A DNA stretch of 44,066 nucleotides. Origin: a phage. The notes under the pieces are model-generated. The model ran no database searches and had not been told where the DNA came from. It saw only the letters and a list, made by a program, of their open reading frames with translations. Positions 7,243 through 42,407 of the stretch are shown here, piece by piece. The translations under genes were made by a program, and so were the position numbers. The stretch lies in assembly GCA_029093145.1 (NCBI GenBank), contig GCA_029093145.1_4347.1, one strand, 5' to 3'. How positions within the stretch are numbered: position 1 is the stretch's first letter; every line of letters starts with the position of its first letter.

Positions 7243-7270
7243 AAGGCCCCATTAAGGGGCCTTAGTTTTC
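7243..7270. terminator. terminator hairpin
   Basis: AAGGCCCC-ATTA-AGGGGCCTT then AGTTTTC. Confidence 0.6.
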
Positions 7271-7472
7271 AACGGAATCTTGTGTTTAAATCCTGCTCAT
7301 GGACAACCCTCAGAACAGTGTCATAATCCTCGTATCTTCCAGGTTCAAATATATCTAATGCCTTGTAAGCAGACATTGCGTCAGGGAAAACCTGCAGAAC
7401 CTTTTTAACCCGGCACAAGTCACCGTCGAACTCTTCATCGAACTCTTGAACTACTTCGCAAATTGCATACAT
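7269..7472 (-). CDS. small acidic hypothetical protein (67 aa), antisense moron
   Basis: Own promoter (7500-7528) and SD AGGAGGTGA; D/E-rich. Confidence 0.5.
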   Translation of the reverse strand: MYAICEVVQEFDEEFDGDLCRVKKVLQVFPDAMSAYKALDIFEPGRYEDYDTVLRVVHEQDLNTRFR

Positions 7473-30661: not shown

Positions 30662-30793
30662 TCATTCCAGCACCCACAGATAAATTGCGATGAACATGCC
30701 CAATATGGCAACCATCATGCCGTATTGACCCTCGTGACAGTAGACACCTGCGGCAAATCCCGCCAGTACCGCGATAATCAGTTTACTTAGCAT
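30662..30793 (-). CDS. small hydrophobic protein (43 aa)
   Basis: Hand-translated; overlaps 3' end of polymerase gene; hydrophobic MLSKLIIAVLAGFAAGV. Confidence 0.3.
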   Translation of the reverse strand: MLSKLIIAVLAGFAAGVYCHEGQYGMMVAILGMFIAIYLWVLE

Positions 30794-32954
30794 AGCGTTT
30801 TAACTCCTGACCTTCCGCTACAAGAGGGAACCCCTCCGCCCATTCTGGTAATTCGCACATCAATCGCTCAAGCTCTGCGACATTGTATTCCGGCGTATCT
30901 GGAGTTTCGCAGATAATCTCATCGTGGACATGAAGTACAATCGGGTAGCCGTTTGCTTCAACGTTAAGTAGCGCATTAGCCAGCAAGTCACGGCACAGTG
31001 CCTGAGTGCAGTTTTCCACCAGTTTACCGGAGTAGGTGTACTGGAAGCCCCACTGCCTGGTTAACTGATTTTCACCCTGATACTTGATGCGCACGTTAGT
31101 AGAAACTTTTCCGTCTTCGTCTGTCTCTTTTGACACGCTCAACCCGACGCCCGGGTATGACATAACGCGACCTGACGGCAACGTCATGCGCAACCACCAA
31201 CCAGCGACTTTGTTGCCGTTGTTGTCTGTTTCTACGTTGCGAGAAAACTTAACCCCGCGAGGGCCAGCGGTGAACTCTTTCCCCGGATTACGGATTGCTG
31301 CCATAGCTGCGTCTTCAATATCGCGCCAGAATTGGACTATTGCAGGATTAGCTTCCCGGTACATGCGCTTTAAAGCGTCACAGGTGCGCCAAACTTTCTT
31401 ATCAAGGATATATGAGGGTCGGTCATCTTTTTCACCAGGACGTGGTGGTCGCTTGGCTTCCTGAATACGCGCCCATTCGTATCCGCGTGCGGTAGCGGCC
31501 CAAATATGGTCCGGGAATGTACCGTCTAAAGTGTTAGTCATGTCATTCAAATCAAGACCTAAGTTTTTAGCAAACGTGACGAAAGCACCGACGCCCCCCG
31601 CGTAGCCGAGTCCCAGAACCATTGCTTTGGCTATTTGTCTTTGGTCCTTTGTTACGGCTTCATATGCAACATTGAACACCGTTGATGCGAGTTTCTTATA
31701 CACATCAACCCCGTTTACAAATACTTCGATTAAATCGTCTTCACCCGCCAGCCACGCAAGACCGCGGCCTTCGACGTTAGAGTAATCGGCGACGACAAAC
31801 TTATGCCCAGCTTCCGGTATAATGCAGCTACGAACGGTAGATGCCGTCAGCTTGGCTACGTCAAATCGGCGGTGCGCCCGGCCCTTAAGTAACGCTGAAA
31901 TGCCTTTATCCAGTTCATCATCGTGATAGTACCCACGCGCCAGGTTCTGTGGCTGGAAGCCTTTACCCGCGAACCGTAACGTACGCTTTGCCCCACCGTA
32001 CTGGATACAACCGCGGCGTCGGTCGTCAGACGAGCGGCCCAACAGCAGCGGGTTATATTTCGTGGACGCGGTGGACGCCGCCCCGAGGCGCATTTCGATA
32101 ATCATCCGGGCGTCGTCCGGTAAATCATCATCTGCCAACAGGTCGTTAAGCGTCGACTTCTGTGCATTGTGTATGCGGTGCGCGGGCGAAAGTTCACGCA
32201 GAATCGGAAGGAAGTCTTTACCGGTAAGCGAGCCGCCGTATTTACGTTGAGCTTCTTCCTGTAACTGTGCCTTGTGCTTCTCTACGGCTTCAATAGCGGC
32301 TTCCGCCAGTGCGACGTCAACCTTAAATCCGCGGTCGTTGATTAACTGGTCAAGCTCCAGTACACGGTCTTCGAACTCGGAGTTACCCCAACGCGGCAGC
32401 TTATGGAAGACTTCACGCATCGCAGTGATGTCGCTCACGGCGTACCTGATGAACATCGCCCACTCGTCAGGGTGAGTTTCTGCGGTGTAGCGGCGGATTT
32501 TGTAGTTCTTCGGCGTCGGTTTAGAGAAACGCTTAATCAGAGCCTTGCCGCGTTTATCTTTCGCGTTGTCTGCAGACACGCCCAGCACTTCGCACAGCGC
32601 ATCAAGAGAACCCGGCAGCGCGTGACGGAACGCCCAAATCATAGTATCAATGGTGTTACTTACCGGAATATCAAAGTCCCAGCAGTGTTTCATGATTAGG
32701 CGATCGAAAAGTCCACCGTTGTGCCACACCATCTTGATGCGGCTGTTGGGCTTAACAAGGCGGCGCAGTGCGCGGTGTAAATCCCCCGGCATGTCGCTGC
32801 CGTCGGTGCAATCCCATACCCGCACAGGTTCGTCGTCAAAAGCATATGTACAGATAAGCACTTCGGTTGACGGGTGTTCGGCGTAAGCGTAAGAACCGAC
32901 TTTCTTCAAATCGGCTTCTGAGAATGTTTCAAAGTCTAAGAACAGGTAACTCAT
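30783..32954 (-). CDS. DNA polymerase, family A, with 3'-5' exonuclease domain
   Basis: Exo motif FLDFETFS; Pol motif A DYSNVEGR, motif B RQIAKAMVLGLGYAGG, motif C HVHDEI. Confidence 0.92.
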   Translation of the reverse strand: MSYLFLDFETFSEADLKKVGSYAYAEHPSTEVLICTYAFDDEPVRVWDCTDGSDMPGDLHRALRRLVKPNSRIKMVWHNGGLFDRLIMKHCWDFDIPVSNTIDTMIWAFRHALPGSLDALCEVLGVSADNAKDKRGKALIKRFSKPTPKNYKIRRYTAETHPDEWAMFIRYAVSDITAMREVFHKLPRWGNSEFEDRVLELDQLINDRGFKVDVALAEAAIEAVEKHKAQLQEEAQRKYGGSLTGKDFLPILRELSPAHRIHNAQKSTLNDLLADDDLPDDARMIIEMRLGAASTASTKYNPLLLGRSSDDRRRGCIQYGGAKRTLRFAGKGFQPQNLARGYYHDDELDKGISALLKGRAHRRFDVAKLTASTVRSCIIPEAGHKFVVADYSNVEGRGLAWLAGEDDLIEVFVNGVDVYKKLASTVFNVAYEAVTKDQRQIAKAMVLGLGYAGGVGAFVTFAKNLGLDLNDMTNTLDGTFPDHIWAATARGYEWARIQEAKRPPRPGEKDDRPSYILDKKVWRTCDALKRMYREANPAIVQFWRDIEDAAMAAIRNPGKEFTAGPRGVKFSRNVETDNNGNKVAGWWLRMTLPSGRVMSYPGVGLSVSKETDEDGKVSTNVRIKYQGENQLTRQWGFQYTYSGKLVENCTQALCRDLLANALLNVEANGYPIVLHVHDEIICETPDTPEYNVAELERLMCELPEWAEGFPLVAEGQELKRYAK

Positions 32955-33014: not shown

Positions 33015-33641
33015 TTAGCGGCGACGACGTTCACGGCGCGGTGCTTCATCTTCTTCGTCATCTTCCAGGTCATTGACGCTCGCGGCGACTTTAGAACCGC
33101 CGAACGCTTTGCCTTCGCCAACGTATTTAATCGCCAGCAGGTTAACGCCGAGGACTTTGTATTTCTGGCTGAACCAGATTTCAACGCTTACGTTAGCTAA
33201 GCATCCGCTGTAAACCTGTTCACCTTCAATCTGTTCGCCGTCTACGTTGAAGTCCTGCTCTACCTGAGTCTCGCCTTTTTTAGAGGTTACAATCAGCGGT
33301 TGTTTCTGTGCCTTCGCTTTGAAGTAGAAGCCTTCCGGGAAGTCTTCAAACGGATTGTCGCGCTCGGCAATGTCTTTAATCGCGCATTTATCCATGTGCT
33401 TACCTTCACCGTAGTTGGACTTCATCCATTTCTCGGCAGCGGCTGCGCCTAACGCTTCTTCAACTACAGCGTAAACGGTGTCGTAGAGTGCATCGATTTG
33501 AGCATGGTCAGACGGCAGGATGATAGTCGCGCTGTACTGGCCTTTAGTGATTGAGCCATCATCGTTTTCACGGTCTTTTTCACGTTCAAATACGTTAACC
33601 CATGCAGTGTTTACTTTACGCAGATTCAGTTTAATACCCAT
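33015..33641 (-). CDS. SSB-like protein (DUF2815-like), acidic C-terminal region
   Basis: Position next to Cas4-like nuclease and polymerase; DLEDDEEDE near C-terminus. Confidence 0.45.
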   Translation of the reverse strand: MGIKLNLRKVNTAWVNVFEREKDRENDDGSITKGQYSATIILPSDHAQIDALYDTVYAVVEEALGAAAAEKWMKSNYGEGKHMDKCAIKDIAERDNPFEDFPEGFYFKAKAQKQPLIVTSKKGETQVEQDFNVDGEQIEGEQVYSGCLANVSVEIWFSQKYKVLGVNLLAIKYVGEGKAFGGSKVAASVNDLEDDEEDEAPRRERRRR

Positions 33642-33738: not shown

Positions 33739-33927
33739 ATAAAATTTTGCAATAGGGATTATGTTCTCGAAATTAAGCATATTGGCCGGTTCGAACTCAT
33801 CCTCTACAGGGTAGTATCGCATCATGGTACCGTTCAAGAACGTGAACGATTCCGAGTGTAGATACCCATCCCAGTGCCATACCATCAAAAAATCTTTATC
33901 AGTCGGCATTTCATTTACTTGAATCAT
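33724..33927 (-). CDS. hypothetical small protein (67 aa)
   Basis: ATG 33927 overlaps stop of upstream gene; SD GAGGAGGA lies inside upstream C-terminal codons (track ORF opens at GTG 33957). Confidence 0.45.
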   Translation of the reverse strand: MIQVNEMPTDKDFLMVWHWDGYLHSESFTFLNGTMMRYYPVEDEFEPANMLNFENIIPIAKFYLTPE

Positions 33928-35165
33928 TCTAAATCCTCCTCTGTAACTTGATTCCACTCAGGACGTTTGTCATCCGCCGTTGCGACGCATGGCGCACCGG
34001 GCTTACGGGTAATGAAATCTTTCAGTTCTTCTTCCGGTACAATTTTAACCGCTTCGGTCGGTGTCATAAGAACTACCTTTTGCAGCATAGTACCGTACTT
34101 CTCGAATACTGCATCGGTATCTTTCCACGCACGATTACCCGGGCGTCCTTCAACCAGTTTATACCCCGGCACTTTCTTACCGGAATGTAACGCAGCAGCC
34201 ATAGCTTTCTCAACCTTGTCGATGTGCTGGCGCAACAACGGCAACTTCTCATACTCAGCTACGAGTTGCTCTGGCGTAAGCTCAAGTGCAAAGTCGTCCT
34301 CCAGTTCTTCCGCCAGCCCCGCGTTAACGGTTTTTGTACGCGCTGCGCATTGTTCAGAGAACCGACACCACTGACAACCATCTACCGACGGCTTGAAGTC
34401 CGACGCTTTCAGGTTCTTTTTACCCCGGAAATAGGCATCAAGAGCCAACAGCGCCCGTTTCTGTGCAAACTTAGCGAACAGTTCCAGACCTTCAACCGAG
34501 ATGTCCCACTCTGTCGCGCCCCCAGCGTAAGGCTGGAAGATGACCAGACGAACGGTTGTTATGTTATAACGTCTCTTGAGTCGACGATAAACACCGAGAG
34601 CGTAAAGCATAAGCTGCTTGTTTTCTTTCGCTTCGACGCGATGCCGCCCGGTTTTCAGGTCGCCGATAATGAGCATGTGCTCGTCGGTGTTTGCCAGTTC
34701 CTGGACAGCAACGAGGTCAGCGGTTCCGAACGTCTCAACGCCTTCATACCCCGGATGCAATACCTCAGTAAGATTGACACGCATTTCCAGCTTGGCGTAA
34801 GTCGCTACGTCTATAATCGCTTTGCAGTAGTCGGTGTACTTGCGCACCTGCTCAATCATGTCCGCCGTAATCAGTACCGCGCCTTTCATCGGGCTGATTA
34901 GCGCCTTAATCTGACCTTTGCCTTCATCCAGTACGTAAGCACCGACTTCACGCTCTAGCGGCAACGCAGTTCCGCGGATATAGGCGTTGAGATGGACCTC
35001 AGCTATTGTGTGCATAGCTGTGCCTAATACAGCAGCTTTACCTGACGTGTTAGGAATATCTTTTTCACAGGCCAGCGATGCGGCGCAACTTAGCCACTTT
35101 TTAGCCCCAGACGGCGACAGCAGGGCGTGCACATCGTTACTGCCGCCACGTTCTTTTAGTTTCAT
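33924..35165 (-). CDS. PD-(D/E)xK nuclease, Cas4/RecB-like (DUF2800-like) with Cys cluster
   Basis: Motifs GTADLVAV, IIGDLKTG, QLMLYA; cysteines CAASLAC and CQWCRFSEQC; SD GGGTGGGAG before ATG 35165 (track ORF opens at 35186). Confidence 0.7.
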   Translation of the reverse strand: MKLKERGGSNDVHALLSPSGAKKWLSCAASLACEKDIPNTSGKAAVLGTAMHTIAEVHLNAYIRGTALPLEREVGAYVLDEGKGQIKALISPMKGAVLITADMIEQVRKYTDYCKAIIDVATYAKLEMRVNLTEVLHPGYEGVETFGTADLVAVQELANTDEHMLIIGDLKTGRHRVEAKENKQLMLYALGVYRRLKRRYNITTVRLVIFQPYAGGATEWDISVEGLELFAKFAQKRALLALDAYFRGKKNLKASDFKPSVDGCQWCRFSEQCAARTKTVNAGLAEELEDDFALELTPEQLVAEYEKLPLLRQHIDKVEKAMAAALHSGKKVPGYKLVEGRPGNRAWKDTDAVFEKYGTMLQKVVLMTPTEAVKIVPEEELKDFITRKPGAPCVATADDKRPEWNQVTEEDLE

Positions 35166-35316
35166 GCTCTTAAACTCCCACCCCATTTAACTTTACGCGT
35201 TTTGCGTTTGTAGGCGCACGTGTCGCCGCTACGGTTGAATATAATCAGCCAAGTCGAGTTGCTTACGCGAAAAGGCTGATGGCGTTTAACAAACAGAAAA
35301 CGGGCTTTACGGTTCG

Positions 35317-35445
35317 TCACTCCTCACTCTCCTCAATCCATGCGTAGTCGAAACTGTCAGCGTCAAGTTCGTGTATCATATTCTCGGCCTCTGCGGATGT
35401 AAGGTATCTACTGTGTTCGTACTCTTCCTCACCGATTTGATACAT
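35317..35445 (-). CDS. tiny acidic hypothetical protein (42 aa)
   Basis: Hand-translated, start 2 nt after upstream stop. Confidence 0.25.
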   Translation of the reverse strand: MYQIGEEEYEHSRYLTSAEAENMIHELDADSFDYAWIEESEE

Positions 35446-35447
35446 AA

Positions 35448-35726
35448 TTACAAACATACCCTGTTCTCCCACTGGTCGATTAAATGTCTGGTCTTGTGGT
35501 CACAATGTAAGGCCCAGCCGTACATCGACTCGAAGACATAAAAGTCAGGCTTGGCGAAAGTCGTGCGTTTAATCTGCGACACGTGACGGCCTATATCTTT
35601 AGGCCGCGGCACTTTGCCTAAGTACACCATCTCTTCCATCTGGTGCGCACCGGACGGCGCACGCAACAGCCACAACGCCTCTGTGTTATCCCGCCTGTCT
35701 ACGGCGCGGTAGAGTTGGTAAATCAT
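35448..35726 (-). CDS. hypothetical protein (92 aa)
   Basis: SD GGAGGGG upstream of ATG. Confidence 0.45.
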   Translation of the reverse strand: MIYQLYRAVDRRDNTEALWLLRAPSGAHQMEEMVYLGKVPRPKDIGRHVSQIKRTTFAKPDFYVFESMYGWALHCDHKTRHLIDQWENRVCL

Positions 35727-35769: not shown

Positions 35770-36270
35770 TTATTCTTCTTCGAAATACTTGTTCTTGATT
35801 GCTGTCAAGCGTTCCAGGTACTCAACCAGGTCTTCGTCTTTAATCGCGGCAATCTTCATCTTCTTACCTGTGAACTCTTCCAGCAGTTCATCAGAATCAT
35901 CGCACGCGGCATCGCTAGGACCTTCATTAATTGCATCGTCGATGGCCTGAATCTGGTCACGCAGAGACTTATAGTCTACTTCTTCTTTCTCTTCTTCCGG
36001 CTCTGGCGTCGTTTCCTCTACTTTAGCTTTACGCGGCTTGCGTTTTGGCTTCTCTTCTTCTGCCGGTTTAGTGTCAACGATGTCTTCACCTTCTACCGGG
36101 ATTTCTTTTGTTGCTTCTTCAGCACACTCAGCTACCGCTTCTTTGGTGTACGATACCGTCTCTACTTCCAGCGGCGCGGCAACCTGAACAACTTGTTTCG
36201 CACTGTTCGCGGCAATCAGTTCATGTGCAACTACGAAACGTTCCAGTAATACTAAGAATTTCTCTAACAT
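35770..36270 (-). CDS. highly acidic hypothetical protein (166 aa)
   Basis: SD AGGAGAA; long E/D-rich tracts (EPEEEKEEVD, DDSDELLEE). Confidence 0.5.
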   Translation of the reverse strand: MLEKFLVLLERFVVAHELIAANSAKQVVQVAAPLEVETVSYTKEAVAECAEEATKEIPVEGEDIVDTKPAEEEKPKRKPRKAKVEETTPEPEEEKEEVDYKSLRDQIQAIDDAINEGPSDAACDDSDELLEEFTGKKMKIAAIKDEDLVEYLERLTAIKNKYFEEE

Positions 36271-36294
36271 TATTTATTCTCCTGTTTATTTGGG

Positions 36295-36522
36295 TTACTC
36301 GCCGTCGCCTTCTGTAAGGCTATCGTCTATTAATTCAAATCTACCGTTTGAGTGTTGAATAGCTTCTTGCCCGCAATGGTCACAGACAACAAGTTTATCG
36401 AACCCATCAAACTCATCCCCTACTACGCAAGAAAGTACAAATTTATGTTTTGTGCACACTTCTTGCGGAGCGCCGAAAATTGCTCGAAAACCTTTAGCTA
36501 TGGCCCCAGTGATTGTGTTCAT
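36295..36522 (-). CDS. small Cys-containing (zinc-finger-like) protein
   Basis: SD GAGAGGGG; CTKH ... CDHCG cysteine pattern; first gene after class A promoter. Confidence 0.5.
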   Translation of the reverse strand: MNTITGAIAKGFRAIFGAPQEVCTKHKFVLSCVVGDEFDGFDKLVVCDHCGQEAIQHSNGRFELIDDSLTEGDGE

Positions 36523-36550: not shown

Positions 36551-36579
36551 ACTATAATAGCGAACTATTCACATGTCAA
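36551..36579 (-). promoter_or_regulatory. class A promoter TTGACA-N17-TATAGT with AATAG-N4-CTATT dyad
   Basis: Minus strand TTGACATGTGAATAGTTCGCTATTATAGT; dyad 36556-36569. Confidence 0.5.
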
Positions 36580-36643
36580 TGGGCTTTTCTAAAATAATTA
36601 ATATGGTACTATTCACATATCAACTGACTAAGGAGTAACTGAC

Positions 36644-36859
36644 ATGCAACCATCTGAACTAGGCACCCGTGTAGAACAACGCCGTAAAGAACTCGGCATC
36701 TCCCAGCGCCGTTTGGCGGCCCTGACCGGCGTTTCCCAGGGCGCGATTAACCAACTGGCACTTGGAGTAACTCAGGACGTCCGCCCGGCAACGCTGTTCA
36801 AACTGGCGGAAGTTCTGGAAGTAGACGCCAAGTGGCTGGCGTTAGGTGAAGGGGCTTAA
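36644..36859 (+). CDS. Cro/CI-type HTH (XRE family) transcriptional regulator
   Basis: ISQRRLAALTGVSQGAINQLALG helix-turn-helix; SD AAGGAG; divergent from replication operon. Confidence 0.85.
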   Translation: MQPSELGTRVEQRRKELGISQRRLAALTGVSQGAINQLALGVTQDVRPATLFKLAEVLEVDAKWLALGEGA

Positions 36860-36876: not shown

Positions 36877-39144
36877 CTATTCCAAATCCTCCTCTGTCAC
36901 TGTCAACATTTCATTCGGTTCGTATATTGTCTTTGGAATCTTGTTATCAGTTATTCTGGTGTTCAGCCTGTAACGACCTGGGATTATCTGATTGTTTTCG
37001 TCAGTACCCGGAACAAGATACCCGGCCTCAACCATTTTCTTAATCTTCCCGCGTTCTATGGCTTCTTTGGAGTTAAACGCCTTTGCGTTTGGGTCTGACT
37101 GTGCGAGCTTATTCGCCGCGGCGACTGTGATGCCTTCGTTGCCGTTGTAGGTTCCTTCCGCCAGTTCAAACGCCGCGAGTATCGTGGCCTCCGAACTGTT
37201 GACGGCGTTCTCTACGGTTTTACGTACATTTTCTTTACCTTCTTTCGTCAACCCTTCTTCCCGCTCTTTCTCCTCGTCAGTTTTGAACGGCTCGAAACCC
37301 CACGGCATCAACACAAGCGCCTTGTGTGGTTCAGGCAGGTCCAGGTTTACGATTGTGCCGTATTCCTCTGTGCTACCCAGGAACTCAACCGCTCGGTATT
37401 CTTTAGGTGGCGGCGCTTCACGGAACTGTACCGACTCCAGCACCATGCCAACCGTCTTCTGCTGAGGCCCGTGCTTGAATTTCGAGTGATATACGTTTAT
37501 CTGACGGTCGGTTGCACGTTCGATTGTCAGTTCCACATCAACACCCGCATACAGCGCCCCACTGCCGCGTGCTTTCTTTCCACCCTTCGGCGTATGGTGG
37601 ACAACGCCTACTGCGGCTTTAGTTGCATCGCGTACTTCTTTCAGAATGGCGATAACTTTACCCATGCCGATTGCTGTTGATGAACTGTTCTCGTCGAACT
37701 TATCAATCGTCAGTGCCAGGGTCTGGTTAAGGGTGTCGAACGCAACCATGCCAATTGGCTCGTCGCCAGCAGTTTCGCGCATTAACTTAATCAGGCTTTT
37801 AAGTTTGCCGACTTCGCCCATATCGATGACATGTACATAATCTTTACCTTCCTCGCCGTATTTAGCCGCGAGCGCATCAATACGTGTACGTGTGGCTGCC
37901 CCACCCTCGCCGTCGATATAGAAATGGTGACAACGCTGGGTGTCAGCCCCTGCAAACCGGTATCCGGCGGCGCTCAGGTACATCATCCCCAGCGTATAGA
38001 ATGATTTGTACGTGCCCGATCCTCCGACGATACCCCAGATACAATCCGACGGCATGTACCCCTCAACGACGAAATCAGCCTTTACCGGCTCCGGTAACTC
38101 GTCCTCCTCTGAGTCCTCGTCGTCTTCCAGGTCGTCGAGGCTGCATGAGACAGATTCACGCGCCCCCCAACCGATGGCCTCTGCGACTTCACTGAACGGC
38201 AGCCCGGTCGCATCGCACGCGTACTTCCACACCTCTTTCGGTGACAGGCCTTCTGTCGCCGTAATGTCTGTGTCGTGAATCATGGTTACGTTTGGCGCTT
38301 CATACCCCTCGCGCGGGAAGCACAGCAGGAAGTCGTCCGGGCGCGGTGTCGGGTCGCTGTAGTTTTCGGCATGTTCCGGTGTGGCTGGCATCTTAAGGCC
38401 GCGCGGCGTCATGACGCCGCCGTACTCAAACGCCAGTGCTTCAAACGCGTCTGTAAACGCGGTGCGCAGTTCTTCCGGTATCTGGTAATCCGATGCGCTG
38501 CTAACGTCAACGGCTGGGATGCCTTCCAGTAACTCGTTCGGGTCGATCAGGTCGTTGCGGCGCGACCAGATAACGGTAGCGCCGACCGGCGGCAGGTACA
38601 TCGGCTGCGACAGAGTGAACCCGCTGCGGTCCGCACCCATGCCTTTGAAGAAGTGCTCCAGCAACCCATGACGAACACGGATGATATCACCACCCTCAAC
38701 TGGGCGGGCCAGCGGCATGACGACGCGAAAGCGAGGCGACTCATCGGTATGTGATGCCGTGGTGTAGAGACACATCGCCCGGCAGCTGCGATTAACCAGG
38801 CGCACCGCTTCCTGGTACTCTTCCGGTGTTGCACTGTCGAAGTCCAGATACGCCAGCGACGATTTGCTCACAGACGCGTCACAGCGATAGAAGAAGCCTT
38901 TACGCGCTTGTTTAAAGCCACCGGTTTCCGGGTCTTTTACGGTGCTGTGTGTAGAATCGCACGCGGCCGTGATATAACCGGGCGCAGTCTTGGGGTTAAT
39001 CCCGTCACGAACGGCATCGAGCGGCTGGATTAACTCTTTCAGGTCGTCCAGTGTTGCCGTGTGTGCGGTTCTGACATTTATATCCTTTTTCCCCGCCCGC
39101 GCGTTGCGGCGTGACCACGAGTAGGATAAAATTACATCGGACAT
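36877..39144 (-). CDS. primase-helicase (AEP-type primase-polymerase domain fused to RecA-like ATPase)
   Basis: N-terminal YLDFD and TTASHTD motifs (AEP-like); central Walker A GGSGTYKS and Walker B GMVAFDTL. Confidence 0.6.
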   Translation of the reverse strand: MSDVILSYSWSRRNARAGKKDINVRTAHTATLDDLKELIQPLDAVRDGINPKTAPGYITAACDSTHSTVKDPETGGFKQARKGFFYRCDASVSKSSLAYLDFDSATPEEYQEAVRLVNRSCRAMCLYTTASHTDESPRFRVVMPLARPVEGGDIIRVRHGLLEHFFKGMGADRSGFTLSQPMYLPPVGATVIWSRRNDLIDPNELLEGIPAVDVSSASDYQIPEELRTAFTDAFEALAFEYGGVMTPRGLKMPATPEHAENYSDPTPRPDDFLLCFPREGYEAPNVTMIHDTDITATEGLSPKEVWKYACDATGLPFSEVAEAIGWGARESVSCSLDDLEDDEDSEEDELPEPVKADFVVEGYMPSDCIWGIVGGSGTYKSFYTLGMMYLSAAGYRFAGADTQRCHHFYIDGEGGAATRTRIDALAAKYGEEGKDYVHVIDMGEVGKLKSLIKLMRETAGDEPIGMVAFDTLNQTLALTIDKFDENSSSTAIGMGKVIAILKEVRDATKAAVGVVHHTPKGGKKARGSGALYAGVDVELTIERATDRQINVYHSKFKHGPQQKTVGMVLESVQFREAPPPKEYRAVEFLGSTEEYGTIVNLDLPEPHKALVLMPWGFEPFKTDEEKEREEGLTKEGKENVRKTVENAVNSSEATILAAFELAEGTYNGNEGITVAAANKLAQSDPNAKAFNSKEAIERGKIKKMVEAGYLVPGTDENNQIIPGRYRLNTRITDNKIPKTIYEPNEMLTVTEEDLE

Positions 39145-41295: not shown

Positions 41296-41421
41296 ATGAA
41301 AGATTATAGTGAAGTAACTTTAGGCGAGTTGCAGGACGAGTACGAAGATATGCTCTACCCGTTCATCTGCGACGGAGATTACAACGGCGTCTATAACGGA
41401 GTGAGCGAAGAATATGAATAG
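41296..41421 (+). CDS. hypothetical small acidic protein (41 aa)
   Basis: SD GAGAGGAGAG; hand-translated. Confidence 0.35.
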   Translation: MKDYSEVTLGELQDEYEDMLYPFICDGDYNGVYNGVSEEYE

Positions 41422-41923: not shown

Positions 41924-42123
41924 CCAGCATCTTATTTATCTGGGTACTGTCCGCAGGCCAGATGCACCTCGCGGCATCGGAAACGTTTTATTCTATGGAG
42001 GCGTGCCAGTCCGCGGCACGCGCAGCAGAGAACGCGCACTTCCTGTTTCAGGGTGACAAGCCCAACGATTCGGAGGTACGCGCTATCTGCTCACCTAAGC
42101 GACTTGGTAAACAGGAGAAGTGA
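41920..42123 (+). CDS. small putative secreted protein
   Basis: ATGA overlap; N-terminal hydrophobic signal-like segment MTSILFIWVLSAGQMHLAAS. Confidence 0.45.
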   Translation: MTSILFIWVLSAGQMHLAASETFYSMEACQSAARAAENAHFLFQGDKPNDSEVRAICSPKRLGKQEK

Positions 42124-42125
42124 TT

Positions 42126-42407
42126 ATGGTACAGAGATACGATTTAAAAGAAGACTGGGTTACGGGGCGTATTGACTTAGAGAAAGACGCAGACGGTGAC
42201 TGGGTTGATTACGAAGACTACGCGGAACTTGAGCGTAAGTTCAATGAACTCAGGACATGGCGTACGCAGATACTCAATGACGCTTTCGACTTTTTATCGC
42301 AGGCAGAAAAAGCGGAAGCCGAGTTGCAGAAATACAAGGACCAGTTCCCGGATTACGTAGAGTGCGCGAACTGCGGGTCAATTACACATGTGGAAGGGGT
42401 GGAGTGA
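42126..42407 (+). CDS. hypothetical protein, paralog A
   Basis: SD AGGAG; shares MV(Q/H)RY start and WV-x-YEDYAEL-x-RK motif with next gene. Confidence 0.5.
   Translation: MVQRYDLKEDWVTGRIDLEKDADGDWVDYEDYAELERKFNELRTWRTQILNDAFDFLSQAEKAEAELQKYKDQFPDYVECANCGSITHVEGVE

Follow-up and report, generated by a model that had tools for sequence, protein, structure and literature searches.

A conserved, modular acidic protein in the replication and recombination module of Kagunavirus and related phages

Among the open reading frames (ORFs) of the 44,066-nucleotide phage contig GCA_029093145.1_4347.1 (GenBank assembly GCA_029093145.1), hereafter the window, a minus-strand gene at 35770-36270 encodes a 166-residue acidic protein that we refer to as X. 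We find that X is best described as a conserved but uncharacterized accessory protein, modular in build, that belongs to a replication and recombination module widespread among phages, and we tentatively propose, with a probability of about 0.35, that it acts as a non-enzymatic, tethered adaptor or regulator of this module within an electrostatic docking network. The initial annotation of this DNA had singled out X for its acidity and its place in an early replication operon and had grouped it with other small acidic proteins as a candidate DNA mimic or anti-defense factor. Its observation on X proves largely correct, but a DNA-mimic role in anti-restriction finds no support and is partly contradicted by the published phenotypes of near-identical phages, whereas a broader version of the claim, in which X serves as an acidic decoy, retains some support.

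Gene, family, and distribution of X

The X gene is real, with its own start and stop codons and an AGGAGA Shine-Dalgarno sequence (Table 1), and its acidity is both real and unusual for this genome: the protein has an isoelectric point (pI) of 4.43, 45 Asp and Glu residues (D+E, 27.1%), 23 Lys and Arg residues (K+R, 13.9%), and a net charge of -22, which places it third in acidity among 69 greedily called ORFs (mean D+E 12%, SD 6%). The "long Glu/Asp tracts" first ascribed to it are nevertheless an overstatement: the longest unbroken D/E run is three residues, the densest 20-residue window holds nine acidic residues, and the acidic positions are interspersed with Lys, Pro, and Thr.

By nucleotide comparison the window is a Kagunavirus (Guernseyvirinae) coliphage genome, as a 6.2-kb stretch around X matches Escherichia phages BEU33 and BEU35 at 96% identity and many Kagunavirus genomes, BASEL phage Bas73 among them, at 90-95%. 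Annotated relatives list the counterpart of X as a "hypothetical protein" between the helicase-primase gene and a block that encodes an exonuclease, a gp2.5-like single-stranded DNA-binding protein (SSB)/annealase, and DNA polymerase I. The placement of X in a replication operon is thereby borne out, with the genes for the helicase-primase, a PD-(D/E)XK nuclease, the gp2.5-like SSB, and PolA all on its strand.

X aligns with the phrog_3127 profile from end to end (residues 1-166 to profile positions 1-177 of 178, E=2.4e-67), a family of unassigned function. A large protein database holds 2482 homologs, and among 1.8 billion representative proteins the family accounts for only 31 clusters at the 50% identity level. 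By tblastn, X occurs in 486 phage records, which take in essentially all Jerseyvirus and Kagunavirus genomes together with some Serratia, Klebsiella, and other phages, at about one copy per genome with a closely related nuclease, and gp19 of Dhillonvirus is a clear homolog (hhalign, 99.7% probability, E=5e-26). Matches in BFVD are confined to the protein's own family, including Edwardsiella phage eiAU gp46, St162, and the "13.88 kDa late protein" of Salmonella phage MB78 (UniProt Q9T1Z8), a fragment 76% identical to X; the MB78 and phrog_3127 proteins show full-length homology to X, and the "late protein" name has been copied from MB78 into many phage records. Neither the single sequence nor a 29-member profile gave a meaningful match in Pfam, NCBIfam, PADLOC, or PDB sequences, and PADLOC likewise returned nothing for X or seven other small or acidic ORFs. 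Matches of X to TonB, TSGP1, and GET2 proved to be low-complexity artifacts of its linker. A literature search found no paper on X.

The surroundings of X are strikingly constant. The order X, often p92, DUF2800 nuclease, gp2.5-like SSB, and PolA is kept in all 24 distant loci examined, and in 22 of them a helix-turn-helix (HTH) regulator occupies the divergent position beside X. Identities across these loci are 33-44% for X, 44-58% for the nuclease, 36-50% for the SSB, 57-69% for PolA, and 25-31% for the helicase-primase, so that X diverges at a rate ordinary for the replication module. Since X is found in 486 phage records and the small acidic ORFs of the window in patchy sets of 5-41 records each, X counts, by distribution, as a core gene and the small ORFs as accessory ones. 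The combination of DUF2800 nuclease, gp2.5-like SSB, PolA, and helicase-primase occurs in >1,400 sequenced phages, and Guernseyvirinae and Dhillonvirus, which find use in therapy and synthetic biology, rank among the coliphages and Salmonella phages isolated most often; X is a universally conserved and probably abundant component of the module that has no assigned function.

The sole match to X in the plasmid database PLSDB is CP088689.1 (44,086 bp), which encodes a 97%-identical X and is filed as a non-mobilizable Escherichia coli plasmid from a blood isolate. The entry most likely represents a phage genome or pseudolysogen submitted under the plasmid label, and X was not found in plasmid anti-defense regions in PLSDB.

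Predicted architecture of X

An AlphaFold2 model built on 22 homologs, together with alignments of up to 29 diverse homologs, divides X into three parts: a helix at residues 2-23 (predicted local distance difference test score, pLDDT, ~79), a segment at ~24-99 with pLDDT mostly <50, and a three-helix bundle at 100-163 (pLDDT ~89-93). Structure prediction had been named at the outset as a check on the DNA-mimic reading; the model resembles neither a folded enzyme nor a known replication factor, and it is not a rigid carboxylate array either. Mean pairwise identity within the family is 0.76 for the N-terminal helix, 0.45 for the C-terminal domain, and 0.31 for the linker between them.

The N-terminal helix (MLEKFLVLLERFVVAHELIAANS; family consensus MLEKFLxLLERFVVAHELIAANS) is thus the most conserved part of the protein. 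It is amphipathic, with hydrophobic residues at all heptad positions a, d, e, and g; R11, A15, E17, and A20 never vary, and conservation extends to the polar residues E10, R11, H16, and E17. This pattern suggests a helix buried in an oligomer or in the groove of a partner, and we presume that it is an anchor or oligomerization element. It remains 70-96% identical in loci where PolA is 57-69% and the helicase-primase 25-31% identical; in Dhillonvirus, its identity to the helix of X is 43%.

The linker, about 45% of X, is predicted to be disordered and carries mixed charge (22 D/E, 12 K/R), with the segment EIPVEGEDIVDTKP (residues 56-69) and the basic cluster KPKRKPRKAK (residues 74-83) set between acidic runs. 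Among homologs it varies in length and in net charge, from -12 to +4; all of them keep a basic cluster in the linker, KRGRP-like in a few relatives, and a subset carries the motif EIPVEGEDVIDTKP. An AT-hook was considered here and dropped, since X has KRKPRK and a true KRGRP core appears only in some homologs, such as that of locus L063; Pfam AT_hook was not among the 25 most frequent matches listed for 29 members of the family. By analogy with lambda O and its origin, the DNA encoding the linker was also considered as a replication origin and rejected, as 35770-36270 contains no iterons or significant repeats.

The C-terminal bundle follows the conserved pattern LR..I...G.SD...D..D.LL..(F/Y)....(I/V)..(I/L).D.D(L/V)..(Y/F)......KY(F/Y)E.E and is acidic in every robust homolog (net -7 to -21), which identifies the conserved acidic feature of X as a small folded domain rather than the eye-catching low-complexity region. 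The C-terminal KYFEEE (family consensus KYYE.E) is itself predicted to be helical and to lie within the bundle, where the docking elements of T7-type replisomes are flexible acidic C-terminal segments that mostly finish with an aromatic residue and bind basic patches of the polymerase or SSB. Readings of this domain by eye as an EF-hand or SAP/HeH domain were dropped for want of profile support. A comparable layout of N-terminal helix, low-complexity linker, and C-terminal helical domain, likewise encoded directly upstream of a DUF2800 nuclease, is found in the APSE-1 P53 family (Hamiltonella, Arsenophonus, and Xenorhabdus prophages) and in Chivirus BP12C gp72. Homology of the P53 and X C-terminal domains is only suggestive (profile-profile E=3e-4, 39% probability), remote homology of gp72 to X is not significant, and both C-terminal domains are much less acidic than that of X.

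This architecture bears directly on whether X could be a classical anti-restriction DNA mimic of the Ocr or ArdA type that blocks type I restriction-modification (RM) or BREX, a role that we regard as highly improbable. Like T7 Ocr (gp0.3) and ArdA, X is acidic (27% D+E), is encoded close to the promoter of an early-type operon, and is probably abundant. It shares, however, no sequence or fold similarity with them: the only Pfam match at E<=1 is a spurious low-complexity one, with nothing consistent over the 29 family members, and X has no ArdA or KlcA family match in Pfam or PHROG. Whereas Ocr is a compact, rigid, fully folded dimer with surface carboxylates that follow the course of bent B-DNA, X is predicted to combine a helix, a disordered mixed-charge linker, and a small bundle, so that nearly half of it is disordered, and its 23 basic residues include the basic cluster. 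Moreover, X is a syntenic core gene, unlike typical patchy anti-defense genes, and is missing from the plasmid anti-defense regions mentioned above. Finally, the BASEL Kagunavirus isolates Bas70-76 as a group show "high sensitivity to RM systems" (PMC11990801), in a panel that comprises two systems each of types I, II, and III (PMC8594841). Because this strongly restricted group includes Bas73, whose X is 98% identical to that of the window, an Ocr-like role is unlikely, with a partial effect of X still compatible with the phenotype. The term "DNA mimic" in papers on Guernseyvirinae refers to Ocr of T7-like phages.

Expression signals around X

Transcription of the operon that contains p75 and X is driven by a near-consensus sigma-70 promoter (11/12 match), which overlaps one copy of a tandem 25-nt direct repeat located between p75 and the HTH gene (36555-36579 and 36599-36623; 84% identical, 44-nt spacing) and faces the divergent promoter of the HTH gene. 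On the minus strand both copies include a -35-like hexamer, so that the HTH regulator probably acts on a promoter/operator unit that has been duplicated.

Directly after the X stop codon lies a GC-rich hairpin, whose eight-pair stem is present in both the minimum free energy and the centroid structures. About 48 of 54 distinct related loci have a hairpin and a short T run at this point, built from at least five unrelated stem sequences, and such constancy of position with unrelated stems points to selection for an attenuator or 3'-end element. The hairpin probably attenuates or partly terminates transcription and thereby fixes how much X is made relative to the downstream enzymes; alternatively, it may stabilize the mRNA 3' end. 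Taken together, the strong promoter and the conserved hairpin suggest early synthesis of X in amounts exceeding those of the downstream enzymes, as would fit a stoichiometric binder. This timing, which we infer from promoter and context, conflicts with the "late protein" name of the MB78 homolog; the basis of that name was not found in the literature, and a search for transcriptome studies returned no relevant paper.

The same control region raises the prospect that X is a transcriptional or regulatory factor, such as an anti-repressor or a binder of RNA polymerase or sigma, that acts with the HTH regulator in timing middle or late expression. X adjoins both the divergent HTH gene and the repeated promoter/operator region, and the small acidic helical proteins AsiA of T4 and Gp2 of T7 bind RNA polymerase. 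Profile searches, however, revealed no HTH, other DNA-binding, or sigma-related domain in X, neither AsiA nor Gp2 is among its fold matches, and its synteny with the nuclease, SSB, and PolA genes is as tight as that with the HTH gene, all of which makes such a role rather improbable.

A candidate adaptor in an electrostatic docking network

We favor the adaptor model on the strength of C-terminal peptides shared between module enzymes, of the likeness between the SSB tail and the linker of X, and of the precedent set by the acidic tails of T7. The helicase-primase and the nuclease, although unrelated enzymes, both end in VTEEDLE (encoded at 36877-36900 and 33924-33947, respectively), and both keep a terminal [ST]-[DE]-[DE]-D-L-x(1-2) in 24 divergent relatives, Dhillonvirus included (loci L003, L005, L006, L055-L075, and L078). 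Judged by its sequence, this shared tail looks like a docking peptide for a common partner. The SSB tail (33015-33080; DDEEDEAPRRERRRR) in turn consists of an acidic run and the Arg-rich tip APRRERRRR, with EEEERPRRRR in relatives; the tails of classical gp2.5 and SSB proteins, by contrast, are acidic throughout. The linker of X is built much like this SSB tail, with an acidic run ahead of a (K/R)P(K/R)(K/R) cluster that reads KPKRKPR in X. In T7, the acidic tails of gp2.5 and gp4, of which the shared VTEEDLE-type tail is reminiscent, mediate replisome contacts, as cited in PMC5686142.

Under the adaptor model, the N-terminal helix of X would self-associate or dock on one conserved partner, and the protein, produced early and in larger amounts than the nuclease, SSB, and polymerase, would act stoichiometrically rather than catalytically. 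Its acidic bundle and basic cluster would join a docking network of other module proteins that may include the [ST]-[DE]-[DE]-D-L C-terminal peptides of the helicase-primase and nuclease and the acidic-run/RPRRRR tail of the SSB, and X could thereby bridge or regulate contacts among SSB/annealase, nuclease, helicase-primase, and polymerase. The design would recall T7 gp2.5 and gp4 and the tails of bacterial SSBs, in which a flexible tether presents an acidic element, and the module of X shares the setting of gp2.5-type SSB, PolA, and helicase-primase, with neighbors that carry acidic or basic terminal peptides. X differs in that its acidic element forms a folded three-helix bundle, which a separate polypeptide carries together with a conserved anchoring helix, and is not the tail of an enzyme. 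If X indeed organizes the replisome or recombination, it would show that a T7-like system can be assembled without the T7 arrangement of tails.

Several points weigh against an adaptor role, for which the case is built from genomic context and motif resemblance. Every candidate phage partner is much less conserved than the N-terminal helix (70-96% identity), a pattern that a conserved host target or self-association would explain no less well. The DEDL-like and basic-cluster likenesses are short and of low complexity and could be a compositional coincidence; an acidic, presumably abundant product of a promoter-proximal gene would equally describe T7 Ocr or lambda Gam; and the MB78 name may point to late expression in one relative.

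Host-directed alternatives

The conservation of the N-terminal helix leads to a second explanation, in which this helix binds a conserved host protein and the acidic bundle covers the DNA-binding surface of that protein, a form of DNA mimicry in a broad sense. The most plausible target of such a decoy is RecBCD, so that X would be a functional analog of lambda Gam, T7 gp5.9, or P22 Abc and would protect the linear, terminally redundant genome and recombination intermediates. We consider this possible but, on balance, doubtful. An acidic C-terminal domain conserved at net -7 to -21 and a helix that holds 70-96% identity where the phages' replication proteins are 25-69% identical would both be expected of a decoy, and the conserved E10, R11, H16, and E17 suggest one specific, slowly evolving partner. 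The X gene also comes first or second after a strong early-type promoter, and the conserved hairpin lies behind it. On the other hand, Dhillonviruses infect the same host, yet their N-terminal helix is only 43% identical; universal conservation and an ordinary rate of divergence are atypical of anti-host accessory genes; and the possible remote relatives, APSE-1 P53 and Chivirus gp72, have a far less acidic C-terminal domain.

Genomic context points the same two ways. Lambda, T7, and P22 all place anti-RecBCD functions beside recombination genes, as in the gam-bet-exo cluster of lambda, in P22, where abc lies next to erf, and in T7, where 5.9 adjoins the exonuclease gene 6. Similarly to lambda Gam and T7 gp5.9 (52 aa, 25% D+E, net -8), X is an acidic helical protein encoded just upstream of an exonuclease/annealase pair. 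It has, however, no detectable homology and no sequence or fold similarity to either, differs from them in architecture, and is a core gene; direct comparison of X with T7 gp5.9, gp5.5, and gp5.7 and with lambda Gam showed no similarity. Kagunavirus isolates are variably sensitive to P2 Old (PMC11990801), which is thought to sense RecBCD inhibition (PMC8594841), as would fit a decoy; against this, Old sensitivity is variable whereas X is universal, and the same operon offers other candidates in p92 and p51. If X does neutralize RecBCD or another host DNA-binding factor, it would represent a new family of inhibitors and a likely trigger of abortive infection.

More speculatively, X may found a new class of phage proteins in which a conserved anchoring helix tethers, by way of a blocky mixed-charge linker, a small acidic helical bundle that serves as a nucleic-acid decoy, a proposal that we consider unlikely. 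We propose two versions of it. In the first, X would be a multivalent hub for SSB, nuclease, helicase-primase, and polymerase that operates through a peptide code of DEDL, RPRRRR, and KPKRKPR elements. In the second, it would be a structurally new inhibitor of RecBCD or of a DNA-end sensor, which would explain why small siphoviruses trigger P2 Old.

Neighboring genes and other small acidic open reading frames

The features of the X locus are collected in Table 1.

Table 1. Coordinates of X, its predicted domains, expression signals, and neighboring genes in the window
Feature	Position	Strand	Basis or remarks
X coding sequence, 166 aa, phrog_3127	35770-36270	-	ATG 36270-36268, TAA 35772-35770
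X Shine-Dalgarno sequence AGGAGA	36278-36283	-	7 nt upstream of ATG, read from sequence
X N-terminal amphipathic helix, aa 1-23	36202-36270	-	AlphaFold2 helix 2-23
X disordered mixed-charge linker, aa 24-98, ~75 aa	35977-36201	-	AlphaFold2 pLDDT <50 over most
X acidic C-terminal three-helix bundle, aa 99-166, 20 D/E, 9 K/R	35773-35976	-	AlphaFold2 bundle 100-163
Near-consensus sigma-70 promoter TTGACA-17-TATAGT of p75-X operon	36551-36579	-	11/12 match
GC-rich hairpin GGCGGCC-UUCG-GGCCGCU, then UUUAA	35745-35764	-	Directly after X stop; eight-pair stem
p75, small Cys-rich ORF, 75 aa, between promoter and X	36295-36522	-	ORF; phrog_32657
HTH regulator, cro/repressor-like	36644-36859	+	ORF, divergent from X; relatives annotate transcriptional repressor or cro
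Helicase-primase	36877-39144	-	Annotation of relatives
p92, basic alpha/beta protein, pI 9.0, directly downstream of X	35448-35726	-	phrog_4965
p51, very acidic accessory ORF, 46-51 aa, net -14, one basic residue	35317-35472	-	phrog_31152
PD-(D/E)XK (DUF2800) exonuclease, X operon	33924-35186	-	Annotation of relatives; Pfam DUF2800 in relatives; C terminus VTEEDLE
gp2.5/Enc34-type SSB and annealing protein, X operon	33015-33641	-	Annotation; Pfam Enc34_ssDNA-bd in relatives
PolA	30783-32954	-	Annotation of relatives

The small ORF p75, whose four cysteines (C23, C32, C47, and C50) include a CxxC pair, may from its sequence be a zinc ribbon. Its insertion between the promoter and X is lineage-specific, as it has no tblastn match in the 24 distant loci and X is the first gene in distant relatives that lack it. 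Downstream, p92 is co-conserved with X, following it in about half of the distant loci and in Dhillonvirus; its AlphaFold2 model has a pLDDT of 94, and a fold search with it gave no informative match. In Escherichia phage jat, gp18 (locus L078, 3193-3522) carries the annotation "DNA recombination nuclease inhibitor gamma". This Gam annotation is doubtful, as the sequence suggests a coiled coil and then a helix-turn-helix and the gene occupies the slot of the Guernseyvirinae HTH regulator.

The remaining acidic ORFs named alongside X all exist, with corrections to some of their details. The 65-residue ORF at 317-514 (+; pI 4.2) occurs in 41 phage records. That at 7269-7472 (-), present in 33 records, does encode 67 residues antisense between plus-strand genes, and the promoter claimed for it amounts to a weak promoter-like site upstream (7640-7611, 9/12); a terminator-like hairpin follows (7263-7243), and its scattered homologs in Kagunavirus, Salmonella, and Klebsiella phages would fit a mobile moron. 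Two further acidic ORFs had been missed, at 41296-41421 (+; 41 residues, 29% D+E) and 42120-42407 (+; 95 residues, 25% D+E, net -13), neither with a match in PADLOC. The patchily distributed small acidic ORFs (5-41 records each) fit an anti-defense profile better than X. In the search for anti-defense genes, acidity predicts little when taken alone; here it is distribution that separates core from accessory genes, and rare accessory ORFs deserve priority in such discovery.

Foremost among these is p51, part of which had been read as a 42-residue protein at 35317-35445; the acidic ORF stands, and that reading is one of several possible starts, as the PHROG profile fits 46 residues from an ATG at 35457 and the longest ORF begins with a GTG at 35472. 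It lies in a variable slot just upstream of the nuclease gene, occurs in only five phage records, and is absent from the distant loci. Its position resembles that of T7 gp5.9, upstream of the exonuclease gene 6, although the two share no sequence similarity. Going by distribution, p51 appears to be the best anti-defense candidate of the window and a better candidate than X for an anti-RecBCD or other anti-defense function.

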